In this document: positions 1 to 3,918 of the stretch, in pieces
Position numbering within the stretch: position 1 is the stretch's first letter
Layout: each line of letters opens with the position of its first letter
IMG/VR virus record: IMGVR_UViG_2657244940_000015
From: a virus
Taxonomy: Duplodnaviria > Heunggongvirae > Uroviricota > Caudoviricetes
Length of the DNA: 4,079 bases
Direction: 5' to 3' (one strand)
Notes under the pieces: model-generated
Database searches by the model: none
What the model saw: the letters and a program-made list of their open reading frames with translations, nothing else
What the model was told of the DNA's origin: nothing
Made by a program: the position numbers and the translations under genes

Positions 1-2010
1 GATGGCGGTGGTCAGCAGGCGGCTGTTCTCATCGCTTCCACTGGTCAGGCGCAGACTGAAGCGCACGCCCTTCACCACCCTCGGCGTGTCCCATTTCGCC
101 AGCGCCAGATACTGGCTGTCAGCTGCGCTCACCTCCACCGTGAGGTGCTGTACTGCCGGTGGGATAACGCTGTTCAGGGTGCCTGACTGCGGCTCAAAGC
201 GGGCTCCGTTATCCACAATGGCTTCTTTTTCCGGTACGTGCTGCACCGCCGTGATGGCAAAGGTGCCGTCCGTGTTTTCCCGGATGGAGACACAGCGGAA
301 CAGGCGACGGCGCAGTGACGGCAGGGAGAGTCCCCACACCCCGTATGTCTCCACACCATCAGGCAGGGTACTGACCTGTATCCGGTCCGGCGCGGGGTGT
401 GCGGTGATGTCCACACTCACCGGCTTACCGCTGCCGTTAATCAGGTTCACCGCCGATGTACCTGTCTCCGGCAGGGTAACCTCACGGTCCAGCGTCAGGG
501 TGCGGGTGGCAGCATCAATGGACAGGATACGTCCGCCGGTCATAGTCCCGGCATAGTCGTTATCACAGATTTCAATAATGTCACCCGGTGTGTGACGCAG
601 CCCCTGTGACCCGAGCGTGAAGTCCACCGTCTGCGTTTCCAGCAGTTCGGTCTTTATCACCCACAGACCTGCACGGTGAGCCTGACCGCGGCTGGTACAG
701 CCAAACGCATCCATCTTCAGCAGATTGCGTCCGTAGCGCAGTATGGCTTCCGGGTCTTCCACCAGTTCCGTGTAGGTCTGCCAGCCGTTCTGCGGGTCGG
801 TGTAATTCACCTCCACCGCCGTGTGCCGGTCCTTCAGGGCACTGAAGCTGTAGCGGAACCCCACGCCGTTATCATCCACCACCACATCGCTGTTGGTGTA
901 CGGCCACACCACATCCGACGGGCGGTCCTGAACGAACGTCAGCGTCTGGCCGTTCCATACCGGCATACAGCGCATCGCCGAGCAGAAATCACTGAGAACG
1001 TCCCACGCCTTACGCTGTTGTGCCAGGTACGCATTAAAGGTCATCCGCGGCTCTGTGCCCCCGAAACCATCCGGGACCGTCTGGTCGCAGTACTGCCCGA
1101 TGGCATACAGCGCCCACTTGTCCACATCCGCCGCCCCCAGACGTTTTCCCATGCCGTAGCGCGGGTGAGTCAGCATGTCCCACAGACACCAGGCCGGATT
1201 GTTACTGTATGCCGGTTTCAGACTGCCGTCCCAGATACCACTGTACGTGCGTTTTTCCGGGTCATAGTTTGACGGCACCTGGATGATGCGACCGCGGATA
1301 TGGTAGTTCACCGTCATCTGCTGGCCGCCGAACTGCTCCGCATCCACCTGCAGCCCCACAATGGCCGTGTTCGGGTAGCACTGTTTCACATCGATAATTT
1401 CGGTGTATGACGACCAGAGCGTCTTATTCTGCAGCTGGTCCGTGGTGCTGTCCGCCGTCTCCCTGACCATCCGGATGTTAAAAGGACGGGGAGGCAGATT
1501 ATCCAGAATCACCGACGCCAGAAACTGCGAGGTGGTCTTGCCGTTAATGGTGACATCCTTTTCCGTCATCCATTTACCACCACGCTCAAGCTGAATCAGC
1601 AGGCGGACAGACGTCGGGTTACGGTCACCCTTTGACGTGGTCTGCACCAGTGACTGCACCCCGAAGGTCACCCGCAGGCGGTCAATGTTCGCGGACGTAA
1701 TGGTGCGCGTCACCGGTTTTGCCTTCGTCACTTCCACGCCCAGTACAGTTTCAGCTCCGGAGGACTCAAAGCCTTCCGGTGGTGTCTGCTCCTGCTCCCC
1801 GGCGCGCCAGACCGCCGTCACACCGTGTATCACGGGATTACCGTCCGTGTCCGTCAGCGGGGTTTTGTTCACCAGGATACTCTGCAGTCCCTTCACCGGG
1901 CCTTCTATCGGTCCCTCACCAACCGCATCAATCACGCTCATCATCTGCGTGGATTTGAGATTATCCTTCGCCTCACGAGGCGTGTGTGCCTTACCGCCAC
2001 CTTTTCCCAT
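1..2010 (-). CDS. J: Tail tip host-specificity protein J (lambda gpJ homolog), N-terminal 670 codons; 3' end lies beyond the left edge of the window
   Basis: Minus-strand ATG at 2010-2008 preceded by a purine-rich SD (GGGGAAGG). Translation begins MGKGGGKAHTPREAKDNLKSTQ..., closely matching the lambda gpJ N-terminus as I recall it. I scanned every codon in this frame from 2010 to 1 and found no stop (670 sense codons). It is absent from the supplied ORF track only because it has no in-window stop. Confidence 0.9.
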   Translation of the reverse strand, partial: MGKGGGKAHTPREAKDNLKSTQMMSVIDAVGEGPIEGPVKGLQSILVNKTPLTDTDGNPVIHGVTAVWRAGEQEQTPPEGFESSGAETVLGVEVTKAKPVTRTITSANIDRLRVTFGVQSLVQTTSKGDRNPTSVRLLIQLERGGKWMTEKDVTINGKTTSQFLASVILDNLPPRPFNIRMVRETADSTTDQLQNKTLWSSYTEIIDVKQCYPNTAIVGLQVDAEQFGGQQMTVNYHIRGRIIQVPSNYDPEKRTYSGIWDGSLKPAYSNNPAWCLWDMLTHPRYGMGKRLGAADVDKWALYAIGQYCDQTVPDGFGGTEPRMTFNAYLAQQRKAWDVLSDFCSAMRCMPVWNGQTLTFVQDRPSDVVWPYTNSDVVVDDNGVGFRYSFSALKDRHTAVEVNYTDPQNGWQTYTELVEDPEAILRYGRNLLKMDAFGCTSRGQAHRAGLWVIKTELLETQTVDFTLGSQGLRHTPGDIIEICDNDYAGTMTGGRILSIDAATRTLTLDREVTLPETGTSAVNLINGSGKPVSVDITAHPAPDRIQVSTLPDGVETYGVWGLSLPSLRRRLFRCVSIRENTDGTFAITAVQHVPEKEAIVDNGARFEPQSGTLNSVIPPAVQHLTVEVSAADSQYLALAKWDTPRVVKGVRFSLRLTSGSDENSRLLTTAI

Positions 2011-2113
2011 ACAGCCTTCCCCTGAATAAATTAACCGCCACTTGCCATTCCGTACAGAAGTCGGATATCCTTCGCCCGAAAAGCATGAAACACATTTCTG
2101 CCATGCTAAAGAG

Positions 2114-2148
2114 AAACCCCGGTATCAGCAGATACCGGGGTTTTCTTT
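2114..2148. terminator. Strong hairpin with U-rich tails on both strands (bidirectional intrinsic-terminator-like) in the I-J spacer
   Basis: Perfect 13-bp stem AAACCCCGGTATC (2114-2126) / GATACCGGGGTTT (2131-2143) with loop AGCA. Followed on plus by TCTTT and on minus by CTCTTT. Confidence 0.5.
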
Positions 2149-2213
2149 CATGTCCACCGATAATCCTGTTGGTAAAAACCGGTAATGGCATAAAAATTCT
2201 GAATATCTTCACA

Positions 2214-2243
2214 TTTTCACAAACTGACTGTGGCGCGTATAAT
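2214..2243 (+). promoter_or_regulatory. Sigma70-like promoter candidate (TTTTCA -N18- TATAAT), oriented antisense to the tail genes
   Basis: Perfect -10 hexamer TATAAT at 2238-2243 and a -35-like TTTTCA at 2214-2219 with 18-bp spacing, in an AT-rich stretch (about 2160-2300). Predicted TSS near 2250. Confidence 0.3.
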
Positions 2244-2310
2244 TTCGCTGCGTTAGTGTTTTTTTGCCCGAGTAACAAAAACAACTCCTTAACTCTAATC
2301 TTTGTCTGTC

Positions 2311-2345
2311 CCCGCAGCTCCGCGATCACTGCGGGATTTTTTTAT
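2311..2345 (+). terminator. Plus-strand rho-independent terminator candidate ending 6 bp from the I stop codon
   Basis: Stem CCCGCAG (2311-2317) / CTGCGGG (2329-2335) with an 11-nt loop, followed by A + TTTTTTT + ATT (2336-2346). On the minus strand the hairpin is followed by GACAGACAAAG, so it is plus-strand specific. Confidence 0.4.
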
Positions 2346-2350
2346 TCTTT

Positions 2351-3031
2351 TTACCCCTGCCGCCCGATAACCACGACCTTTCCGCACCCGCCTTCATCAC
2401 GGGTACTGATGTCCTGGGATATACGGCGGGAGCCAACCAGCATTTCCCCGTAAGGCACCGGCATCGGGTTACCCTGGGCAATCATGTTGTCCAGTGACGA
2501 AAAATACGTGTTCTGTCTGCCGTTATCCGTTGCGCGGTAATCCGGTGTTTTTGCCTTCGGGGCCAGCATCTGGGCCACACCACCCAGAATCATGCTGGCC
2601 CCCAGTGAAAACAGCATCGTGGTGGCAGAAAAACCGCCGGCACTCAGGGCTGTACCCCATAACGCCATCGAGGCACCGGCAGTGAGGAAAGAGCCCACGA
2701 TGGCTGCCGCCCCCAGCACAATCTGCAGTCCACCCTTTCCGGCCCCGGCCAGTCGCGGCACAATATGGATAACCGTTCCCTCACTCAGTGGTTCGTGAAG
2801 GCGGGCATACACCGCCTCCGGTGCCGTATCCTCACCGGCAATGCGTATCTGGTACCAGCCTTCGTTCATCTGACGGCGAAAGCCCGGCACCTGCATCGAC
2901 AGTGCGCGGATGGCTTCCGCTGCCGTGTTCACATACAGGCTGAGGCGGCGGCCAAATCGTTGTAAATCCCCGTGAAGGCAGATGCGTGCCAGTGGCGGTG
3001 ACGCCAGACAGAATGCGTTCGTCGTTGCCAT
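2351..3031 (-). CDS. I: Tail tip assembly protein I (lambda gpI homolog), 226 aa
   Basis: ORF from the track (MATTNAFCLASPPLARICLHGDLQRFGRRL...QGNPMPVPYGEMLVGSRRISQ...) resembles lambda gpI in length (223 aa in lambda) and sequence, including the hydrophobic Gly/Ala-rich central segment. SD-like GGGAGAGG lies about 11 nt upstream of the ATG. The start sits 103 bp inside the K reading frame, as in lambda. Confidence 0.88.
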   Translation of the reverse strand: MATTNAFCLASPPLARICLHGDLQRFGRRLSLYVNTAAEAIRALSMQVPGFRRQMNEGWYQIRIAGEDTAPEAVYARLHEPLSEGTVIHIVPRLAGAGKGGLQIVLGAAAIVGSFLTAGASMALWGTALSAGGFSATTMLFSLGASMILGGVAQMLAPKAKTPDYRATDNGRQNTYFSSLDNMIAQGNPMPVPYGEMLVGSRRISQDISTRDEGGCGKVVVIGRQG

Positions 3032-3918
3032 TTTTCGGAATACCTCTCCCGTTTACTCAGTTGTTCAGGCAGATGGTGAAGCAGTTCACCGTTGCCGCAG
3101 TAAATGGCGGCATGATTAGCCACCGATGCGCCGAAGCAGCACAGCAGGATATCGCCCGGCAGTGCAGAGGACAGGGGCACCCGGTAAAAGCCCGTTTCCT
3201 CCATATTGTCCAGGTAAAGGTTCTGACCGTTGCACCACCAGTCATCCTCACGGTGAAAATCCGGCATATCAATGCCTGCCAGATGGTATGCATCCCGGAA
3301 CAGCGTGTAACAGTCCGTCACCCCGTGCGCAAAGCGCCGTCCTGTCAGATGTGGCACACAGCGGAATTTGTGAATGTCACCCCGGCTGACCAGCCACCAG
3401 GGCAGTGCGCTTTTTATCTGCAGCCGCCGGTCAGCCTCGCTCAGCCAGGGCAGACCACCGGGATGACTGTGGACCAGTGCCACAATCTCCCCCTGCATCT
3501 CTGCCCGCAGCCAGTCTTCCGGTGCGATACGAAAATACGCCTCAGGCTCTGCAGAGATATTCACGCACGGCTGGTACTGGTTGCCCTCCGGCGTGCTTAT
3601 CACGAAGCCGCACGACTCCGCAGGCGCACACCGCCGGGCATGCGCCAGAATCGCTGATTCAGTCTGTGTCATGGGATTTACTGCGAAAGACTGCACGGCC
3701 CCATCAACGCGGGTGATGGCGTTAACCGGGCAGACCGTTGCGCAGGGTGCATCTTCACAGTGGTGACAGAGCTGCGGCGCAGATTCTTTTTCATTGAGCA
3801 TCACTCTCAGGCGCGGCATTGATTGCAGGCCGTGCTGGCGATGCGTCTCTGAACAGGCAGCCTCACAAGTGTGGCAGCCGATACAGAGCGTGGAGTCAGC
3901 AATTACAAAACGATTCAC
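2929..3918 (-). CDS. K: Chimeric ORF: N-terminal 82 aa HycB/HyfA-type 4Fe-4S ferredoxin fragment fused in frame to a full-length tail tip assembly protein K homolog (JAB/MPN + NlpC/P60). A K-only product could start at the internal ATG at 3672 (247 aa)
   Basis: 329-aa ORF with GTG start at 3918 and SD GAGGA 7 nt upstream. Residues 1-76 carry CIGCHTCEAAC (CxxCxxCxxxC) and CHHCEDAPCATVCP (CxxCxxxxCxxxCP). From residue 83 (MTQTESAILAHARRCAPAESCGF...) the protein matches lambda gpK, including the JAMM motif HSHPGGLPWLSEAD (HxHx7SxxD) and the NlpC/P60-type Cys in GVTDCYTLF. The internal ATG at 3672 has no obvious SD. Confidence 0.8.
   Translation of the reverse strand: MNRFVIADSTLCIGCHTCEAACSETHRQHGLQSMPRLRVMLNEKESAPQLCHHCEDAPCATVCPVNAITRVDGAVQSFAVNPMTQTESAILAHARRCAPAESCGFVISTPEGNQYQPCVNISAEPEAYFRIAPEDWLRAEMQGEIVALVHSHPGGLPWLSEADRRLQIKSALPWWLVSRGDIHKFRCVPHLTGRRFAHGVTDCYTLFRDAYHLAGIDMPDFHREDDWWCNGQNLYLDNMEETGFYRVPLSSALPGDILLCCFGASVANHAAIYCGNGELLHHLPEQLSKRERYSEKWQRRTHSVWRHRHWHASAFTGIYNDLAAASACM
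3673..3918 (-). pseudogene. hycB: 5' fragment (about 77-82 codons) of a formate-hydrogenlyase-type Fe-S subunit gene (HycB-like), truncated after the second Cys motif and fused to phage K
   Basis: MNRFVIADSTLCIGCHTCEAACSETHRQHGLQSMPRLRVMLNEKESAPQLCHHCEDAPCATVCPVNAITRVDGAVQ matches my recollection of the E. coli HycB N-terminus nearly residue for residue. Similarity ends at ...GAVQ, where an intact HycB would continue with further Cys motifs. The gene symbol is from memory and was not verified by search. Confidence 0.5.

Follow-up and report, generated by a model that had tools for sequence, protein, structure and literature searches.

The sequence examined is a 4,079-nt stretch of a Caudoviricetes genome (IMG/VR record IMGVR_UViG_2657244940_000015), hereafter called the window. 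It carries, on the minus strand, homologues of the lambda tail genes I and J. The product of I aligns with lambda I along its full length at 65% identity, and that of J aligns with lambda J from the first residue at 72% identity (residues 1 to 65 were compared). ORF and start-codon coordinates in the window place the gap between the two genes at 2011-2350, a length of 340 bp, exactly as given by an earlier reading made from the letters alone (the sequence-only reading). The same boundaries apply in E. coli G1/2, in which the spacer is 100% identical and the RefSeq J start and I stop fall on the same bases as in the window. The I-J gap of lambda measures 60 bp (15445-15504), in agreement with the few tens of base pairs given for it in that reading. 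The features discussed below are as follows.

1 to 2010, minus strand: 5' part of J (tail tip, host specificity), with its ATG at 2010-2008; the gene exits the window at the left end.
2011 to 2189, no strand assigned: module A (179 bp), comprising the J leader, the Shine-Dalgarno sequence GGGGAAGG and a small and a large hairpin, delimited by sequence comparison.
2082 to 2107, no strand assigned: small 6-bp hairpin (GCAUG.../...CAUGC), from minimum-free-energy folds of both strands.
2108 to 2148, no strand assigned: large 18-bp hairpin with a GC core, AAAGAGAAACCCCGGUAUC-AGCA-GAUACCGGGGUUUUCUUU, from fold and scan.
2190 to 2243, plus strand: predicted PasB promoter region, with the AT-rich upstream block ATAAAAATTCTGAATATC, tandem TTCACA hexamers and a -10.
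2208 to 2213 and 2216 to 2221, plus strand: the TTCACA hexamers, the second being the -35.
2238 to 2243, plus strand: -10 TATAAT, with a 16-nt spacer to the -35.
2250 to 2343, plus strand: predicted PasB-family sRNA gene, from homology to the published RNA and the predicted promoter and terminator.
2311 to 2343, plus strand: predicted PasB terminator and Hfq-binding module, from scan call and fold.
2351 to 3031, minus strand: I (tail assembly), a 226-aa ORF with a Pfam Lambda_tail_I match.

The gap differs in composition from its surroundings. Its GC content was 0.405 to 0.445 in 200-nt windows, compared with 0.55 to 0.65 in the flanking genes, which bears out its earlier description as AT rich (0.40 to 0.45 against about 0.6 in round figures). 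On the plus strand, a pattern scan returned a promoter match, TTCACA-16-TATAAT, at 2216-2243 with 11 of 12 consensus positions, as well as two terminator-like hairpins (2113-2144 and 2319-2335), both leading into a T-run. Shuffled sequences contained, on average, 0.7 terminator-like and 0.8 +/- 0.9 promoter-like sites per shuffle. The two hairpins and the TATAAT at 2238-2243 are those that the sequence-only reading had reported; from this promoter, a terminator and the composition it had, in effect, picked out the locus of a known sRNA, PasB.

PasB (pathogenicity-associated sRNA B) was described in prophage PP6 of E. coli O127:H6 E2348/69 (Pearl Mizrahi et al. 2021, PMC8550237). Hfq RIL-seq in this EPEC strain revealed five prophage sRNAs, PasB among them, that were validated by Northern blotting (PMC8550237). 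Its published position (NC_011601.1, 1466343..1466261, minus strand, 83 nt; Northern probe AATCCCGCAGTGATCGCGGAGCT; PMC8550237 table S6) falls in the gap that separates gpJ from the tail assembly gene I, in antisense orientation to the two. Alignment of 2190-2350 with this locus gave 93% identity; both lie in the I-J gap in the same orientation to the tail genes, with the same promoter and an identical terminator. Indeed, the TTCACA-16-TATAAT promoter and the PasB terminator were also called in E2348/69 by the same scan. The probe corresponds to window positions 2316-2338 at 23 of 23 positions (0 mismatches) and is complementary to the plus strand. Within the RNA body, the window allele carries substitutions at 2293, 2296-2297 and 2299 and a 4-nt deletion after 2303 (UAAUC----UUUG) relative to E2348/69 PasB, and it also differs in the promoter region and beyond the U-tail. 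Judged from its sequence, 2190-2350 is a self-contained putative pasB allele, on the plus strand and antisense to the tail operon.

A primary transcript is predicted to begin at about 2250, 7 nt after the -10, and to extend for 94 nt to the last U at 2343. Mapped by homology to the 83-nt E2348/69 RNA, the 5' end lies at 2265 (RNA 2265-2343, about 79 nt), which is 22 nt past the -10 as opposed to the usual 7 or so; this offset could indicate either a processed RNA or an imprecise coverage-based 5' end. The terminator consists of a stem formed by CCCGCAG (2311-2317) and CUGCGGG (2329-2335) with an 11-nt loop, followed by an A and by U7 at 2337-2343, and the U7 tail ends 8 nt short of the I stop codon. 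A U-tract of 7 is also listed for E2348/69 PasB (PMC8550237 table S5). On the tail-sense strand, the PasB hairpin is followed by GACAGACAAAG, with no T-run.

In E2348/69, PasB gave a Northern band of the expected size, and its log2 fold changes in a delta-hfq background were -6.8 and -2.4 (PMC8550237). It took part in 37 RIL-seq interactions, with partners in both the core and the accessory genome, and was RNA2 (the second position, which is typical of sRNAs) in at least 98.7% of chimeras; its targets yielded no common motif, and table S7 has no PasB entry (PMC8550237). By analogy with its homologues, the window allele is predicted to be expressed as a discrete RNA of about 80 nt that depends on Hfq and, by analogy with the E2348/69 allele, to pair in trans with multiple mRNAs on Hfq. 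Since the window allele differs in the RNA body, its targets may differ from those of E2348/69 PasB. The sequence identity, anatomy and conservation of PasB described here come from this analysis; expression, Hfq dependence and trans partners are taken from the published homologues.

We aligned PasB-family sequences to define what is conserved. Across 34 unique transcripts, the promoter, a 5' GCGUUA followed by a U-run, AAYUCC, UAAUCUUC and the terminator CCCGCAG...CUGCGGGAU7 were conserved, and the rest of the body was allelic. Across 44 unique spacers, the -35 and the AT-rich upstream block were invariant or nearly so, and the -10 was TATAAT or a close variant. RNAalifold analysis of 18 diverse family members retained the terminator stem alone, giving a single hairpin preceded by an open 5' region. 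The seven pairs of this stem were invariant in the 18 members, and the loop varied in length and sequence. No covariation was seen in the PasB terminator stem among these 18 members because the stem does not vary, so that the support for the structure is one of conservation only.

The PasB body contains A-rich ARN-type repeats and the heptamer CUCCUUA, which is complementary to Shine-Dalgarno sequences and is the reading of the conserved motif in most alleles, that of the window included. CUCCUUA is the same heptamer as that at the 3' end of 16S rRNA. It is plausible that PasB uses it as a seed that pairs with Shine-Dalgarno regions.

PasB-type modules were present in 1808 of 5426 complete E. 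coli genomes, with up to 10 per genome, and were annotated in none. For want of an Rfam model, annotation has thus passed over a validated, Hfq-dependent sRNA gene at 5288 places, spread over a third of the complete E. coli genomes. Consistent with this, the Rfam search that had been suggested for the gap came back empty: the covariance models, including those of AgvB, AsxR, STnc100, IsrG and IS009, matched no part of the window at E<=1, and the same scan detected both AgvB and STnc100 in Sakai Sp10. The exact window allele is uncommon (40 records at >=99% identity). It recurs behind long and short J-proximal modules alike, which indicates a circulating allele rather than a decayed copy.

Members of the same family appear to have been recovered earlier from EHEC. 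EcOnc22, EcOnc23 and EcOnc24 are Hfq-CRAC sRNA candidates from the O157:H7 Sakai prophages Sp15, Sp14 and Sp11, respectively (Tree et al. 2014, PMC4104026, Table S2); they gave a Northern band of about 85 nt and were destabilised in the delta-hfq strain (PMC4104026). We found that all three lie inside I-J gaps, antisense to the tail genes, and that these gaps hold diverged PasB-like genes. Taken at face value, the published coordinates fall on the J-proximal hairpin instead of PasB. They refer to an older Sakai record, for which the.1-to-.2 offset is about +128 to +146; this offset was calibrated in two ways, with AgvB (Rfam match at 1941920-1941981) and by comparing EcOnc42 with its E2348/69 homologue. 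With the offset applied, the Hfq peaks land on the PasB-like bodies, the Sp15 peak (2902842-2902902) falling within the gene at 2902836-2902926. The three candidates share with window PasB the location in the I-J gap, the antisense orientation, the -35, the terminator, AACUCC and UAAUCUUC, but they are only about 74% identical to the window module and have AATAAT as the -10 and a different 5' body. On the strength of this calibration, EcOnc22-24 (2014) and EPEC PasB (2021) appear to form a single family with a fixed location, an equivalence stated in neither PMC8550237 nor PMC4104026. The targets of EcOnc22-24 are given as unknown in a 2021 review.

To place the gap among its relatives, we assembled 92 I-J spacers (47 unique) from 80 viral contigs encoding near-identical I proteins and from reference loci. 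The spacers were 234 to 344 bp long, with a few at 851 bp. A long I-J gap is the normal state in this E. coli prophage group, and lambda is the short outlier; the gap, which the sequence-only reading had called unexpected, is therefore unusual when its 340 bp are set against the 60 bp of lambda but ordinary among its relatives. A PasB-type module occupied the I-proximal end of the gap in all 92 spacers. A further search of contigs with protein I returned only 4 loci, 3 of them probable contaminants, and so gave no view across species.

The gap is made up of two independently reassorting modules rather than a single insert. The modules meet at a junction immediately to the left of ATAAAAATTCTGAA (2190), some 60 nt upstream of the point at which PasB begins. 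On the J-proximal side of this junction, module A was 95.6 to 100% identical in every copy; the adjacent PasB module was 79 to 100% identical and the flanking I and J DNA 91 to 100%. That a PasB module this variable stands beside a near-invariant module A implies that the two reassort. Comparison of the spacers among lambdoid relatives had been proposed as a check on whether the insert is mobile, and what it revealed was this independent reassortment. The proposal of an inserted, moron-like, noncoding element thus holds for the I-proximal half, which is the PasB sRNA unit, but not for the gap as one insert.

Module A was found in 1446 of the 5426 genomes, always at >=95% identity, and no diverged copies were detected in E. 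coli genomes, phage records or viral contigs. The phage records that carry it are ompW-type prophages and ASU11 only. It has no counterpart in E2348/69, Sakai, BP-4795 and PhiR5_1, in which the gaps are 237 to 246 bp long and contain an unrelated J-proximal segment of 76 to 100 bp; the gap of E2348/69, for example, is 240 bp with a 77-bp module, compared with 340 bp and 179 bp in the window. In the 851-bp class of spacer, a sodC gene lies in the same I-J gap, which confirms the I-J site as a moron hotspot. The gap is a modular moron site that holds the PasB cassette, or sodC in some phages, always beside a hairpin upstream of J.

On either strand, the large hairpin of module A has an A-tract to its 5' side and a U-tract to its 3' side. 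On the plus strand it has the form of an intrinsic terminator (a GC-rich stem-loop and then a U-tract), and the terminator-like scan call at 2113-2144, with 14 pairs, was made on this strand only. On the minus strand the U-tract that follows it (UUUCUCUUU) is imperfect, and the terminator rule made no call. Folding of 2078-2152 gave a dG of -31.9 kcal/mol, with a z score against shuffles of -6.8 for the plus strand and -5.0 for the minus strand. The exact 18-bp hairpin was present in 114 viral contigs and stood in an I-J context in all of those with flanks long enough to judge. The few natural variants of module A were uninformative or conflicting with regard to pairing in this hairpin.

Spacers of the short class have a different hairpin at the same position, and in E2348/69 and Sakai it was called as a tail-sense terminator. 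Its variants include a C-G pair, a U-A pair and an intermediate, which forms a U.G wobble on the tail-sense RNA and a C.A mismatch on the other strand. Because the intermediate pairs only in the tail-sense RNA, it points to selection on the tail-sense transcript for the short-class hairpin. The 60-bp gap of lambda consists mostly of one hairpin with flanking A and U runs, on which the terminator rule made no call. At least three unrelated sequences, that of lambda among them, place a hairpin immediately upstream of J, which suggests that the PasB cassette is an addition between I and the hairpin. We infer that the 2108-2148 hairpin is most likely a bidirectional intrinsic terminator or insulator upstream of J.

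Taken together, these data make it highly probable that the I-J gap is a two-module intergenic region, composed of a pasB allele and a J-leader hairpin, that is typical of E. coli lambdoid prophages. PasB would be an sRNA moron that stands by itself: a sigma-70 promoter of its own would drive transcription antisense to the late tail operon, and the transcript would end at a Rho-independent terminator with a U7 tail. By homology, lysogens would contain a PasB RNA of 80 to 95 nt, the stability of which would depend on Hfq, and its unstructured 5' body would pair with mRNAs in trans. In the tail sense, the module A hairpin may stop unantiterminated transcription before it reaches J in the lysogen. 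Given its symmetry, the hairpin would also protect the PasB promoter against transcription reading in on the other strand. The seed of PasB and the function of the module A hairpin are the parts of this scheme that we infer.

A different role for PasB has to be weighed, in which it acts mainly in cis: the RNA is perfectly complementary to the I-J part of the late tail mRNA and could direct RNase III cleavage or exert some other control over J or, conversely, be titrated by the late mRNA on induction. The pasB gene does fall entirely between I and J, on the strand opposite to theirs, its position is fixed in 92 of 92 spacers, and its terminator is one-directional, so that late transcripts would read through it. 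However, the homologue has 37 trans partners by RIL-seq and behaves as a typical trans-acting RNA2. PasB is also kept in degraded prophages that lack K and I (Sakai Sp9) and in the remnant represented by the window, and there a cis role in tail assembly would be pointless. We consider a mainly cis function unlikely, bearing in mind that cis and trans roles are compatible with each other. It is more doubtful that module A encodes a second plus-strand sRNA of about 72 nt in tandem with PasB, starting near 2078 and ending at the 2108-2148 hairpin and its U-tract. A promoter-like sequence, TTGCCA-18-TATCCT, does occur at 2042-2071 (9 of 12 positions) ahead of the plus-strand call at 2113-2144, the two-hairpin fold of 2078-2152 is stable (dG -31.9, z -6.8), module A surpasses the flanking coding DNA in conservation, and in one natural variant (L036) the stem is kept as a U.G pair on the plus strand only. 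A 9-of-12 promoter match is nevertheless within chance (0.8 +/- 0.9 per shuffle), the U-tract, interrupted and paired along its whole length with the A-tract, makes a poor Hfq 3' module, there is no Rfam match, and the near invariance could reflect recent spread. Module A is not known to give rise to a transcript; the EPEC and EHEC strains with published data belong to the short spacer class. EcOnc33 (about 71 nt) was considered as a module A transcript and rejected, as it adjoins a nanS-type esterase in Sp6. Sakai Sp9 was likewise rejected as a carrier of module A at ompW, having a short spacer and neither K nor I; with its short spacer, the EHEC CRAC data are silent on module A. Also improbable, if marginally less so than the second sRNA as such, is a two-RNA regulatory island in which module A, alongside PasB, encodes either the plus-strand sRNA of about 72 nt or a tail-sense leader that gates J. 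Were it true, PasB, through its perfect complementarity to the late mRNA at the I-J junction, would link tail-tip synthesis, and the supply of PasB itself for host targets, to whether the phage is in the lysogenic or the lytic state.

Two further readings take the gap to hold a small protein gene or to be nonfunctional DNA, and we give either of them very little credence. A small protein gene would be represented by a 66-aa, tail-sense ORF (2191..1991), which is ATG initiated and is annotated in one phage record, as hypothetical protein gp9c of phage ASU11. This ORF has no Shine-Dalgarno sequence upstream and no Pfam match, its PHROG E values are >=0.18 (0.045 for its 37-aa sub-ORF), and its frame spans the 18-bp hairpin and overlaps J by 20 nt. 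Its variants do not behave as coding sequence, either: L018 has 6 nonsynonymous changes versus 1 synonymous change, and L012 has a frameshift and a premature stop. RefSeq leaves the ORF unannotated in about 1450 genomes, and none of the small ORFs in the gap, on either strand, stands as a gene. The Pfam, PHROG and variant analyses all support the original statement that the gap has no convincing protein-coding ORF, and a conserved small protein gene, the discovery of which was to have counted against a noncoding element, did not emerge, the only annotated ORF (gp9c) failing as a gene. It is just as hard to credit that the spacer is ordinary, nonfunctional intergenic DNA, a recombination scar of mosaic lambdoid genomes. 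Reassortment of two modules at a fixed junction is typical of lambdoid mosaicism, but the promoter and terminator are conserved while the PasB body diverges, and module A varies less than the coding sequence next to it. Homologue transcripts have been detected in two pathotypes, and for the PasB half the scar reading is contradicted by Northern and RIL-seq data. The sequence-only reading had itself allowed for a spacer shared by relatives as conserved DNA with no transcript; the relatives do share the spacer, but a transcript of the homologue is documented.

The two-module reading, which we prefer, places PasB beside other RNAs of lambdoid prophages. AgvB and AsxR of EHEC (RF02702 and RF02703) are, like PasB, short Hfq-binding RNAs encoded by noncoding morons. 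Unlike PasB, which occupies the I-J gap, they are found at the moron site downstream of PR', and they have no sequence or covariance-model similarity to the window. AgvB and AsxR are sponges of GcvB and FnrS, a mode of action not known for PasB. AgvB was considered as the content of the gap and rejected, as it is located at the PR' moron site and has no Rfam match in the window.

The moron concept reportedly goes back to Juhala, Hendrix and colleagues in 2000, and lom, bor and sodC are lambdoid protein-coding morons. The PasB unit has the corresponding properties, namely, its own promoter and terminator, a deviant GC content, a location between conserved late genes and absence of the cassette from lambda, with its 60-bp gap. 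It differs from the protein-coding morons in that its product is a noncoding RNA and it is antisense to the host operon. The element itself is already known, from the 2021 description of PasB and from a 2026 study of its distribution (Zhu, Shabalina and Storz, bioRxiv 10.64898/2026.05.13.724894). Our additions, the apparent unity of EcOnc22-24 and PasB as one family and the I-J gap as a modular moron site, are modest and leave the current understanding of prophage sRNAs as it is.

The surroundings of this pasB allele are not those of an intact prophage. Phage homology in the window ends at 3689, 17 nt upstream of the K start, and the sequence from 3690 onward is nonphage, core-genome hycB/hycA. 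The phage and hyc parts are joined in frame, giving a 329-aa ORF with 4Fe-4S, JAB and NlpC/P60 domains, and the phage-hycB junction was found in 0 of 5426 complete genomes. The window PasB gene sits in a prophage remnant fused to hycB, a context that fits the remark of Zhu et al. that PasB often occurs outside recognisable prophages (bioRxiv 10.64898/2026.05.13.724894).

The Hfq-CRAC sRNA candidates EcOnc22, EcOnc23 and EcOnc24 of EHEC Sakai (Tree et al. 2014; PMC4104026) were placed on the sequence of the corresponding prophages. Once a coordinate shift of approximately +128 nt between versions of the Sakai record is applied, they coincide with the PasB-like genes of Sp15, Sp11 and Sp14, of which that of Sp15 (locus L007) lies as follows.

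2337-2427 of L007: PasB-like gene.

Because the shifted candidates fall on PasB-like genes and the paper describing PasB (PMC8550237) gives no EHEC homologue, the two literatures appear to describe one sRNA family under two names, PasB and EcOnc22/23/24. A further Sakai prophage, Sp9, has suffered loss of K, I and a section of L and retains a PasB variant together with the short J-proximal module, immediately upstream of J (L096, 8586-8772).

Inspection of the PasB promoter in the window revealed two tandem TTCACA hexamers (2208-2213 and 2216-2221), which are preceded by a highly conserved AT-rich block (2190-2207). The arrangement may constitute a regulator binding site; PasB levels are reported to be higher in "non-activating" growth conditions. 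The promoter is replaced in the four loci with I-J spacers of 851 bp (L014, L073, L082 and L088), where a gene for a Cu,Zn superoxide dismutase (sodC; Pfam PF00080, E value of 4e-32) occupies its place on the PasB-sense strand. The PasB body and terminator are kept in these spacers, 3' of a sodC terminator hairpin; in this setting PasB may be a relic, or else an RNA derived from a 3'UTR.

The 60-bp I-J gap of lambda (L097, 746-805) is mostly a single hairpin, GAAACCGCC-UGCG-GGCGGUUUU. At the same place, the short-class spacers carry a hairpin unrelated to that of lambda, with its U-run on the tail-sense strand (3431-3454 in L002; 2265-2242 in L007); its variants include a U.G intermediate, which is strand diagnostic. 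Tail operons of this kind thus seem, as a general rule, to have a hairpin just upstream of J. The J-proximal module of a further locus, L062, has four tandem copies of the heptamer GTCTGAT versus two in related spacers, and the extra copies lengthen its spacer to 260 bp.

In the window, phage DNA stops 17 nt ahead of the start of K (junction at 3689/3690). There it is fused, directly and in frame, to approximately codon 77 of hycB, a core gene that has hycA on its far side.

2929..3918, minus strand: chimeric 329-aa ORF, HycB 4Fe-4S N terminus joined to K JAB/NlpC-P60.

This junction was found in none of 5426 complete E. coli genomes, which leaves either a chimeric contig or a host in which the prophage survives as a truncated remnant and the hyc operon is disrupted. 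Among the genome_contigs matches, E. coli-type I genes (91 to 98% identity) also occur on the 0.5- to 3.4-kb contigs of L012, L013 and L014, attributed to Streptomyces flavalbus, Parendozoicomonas haliclonae and a Clostridiales MAG; their presence in these assemblies is probably contamination.
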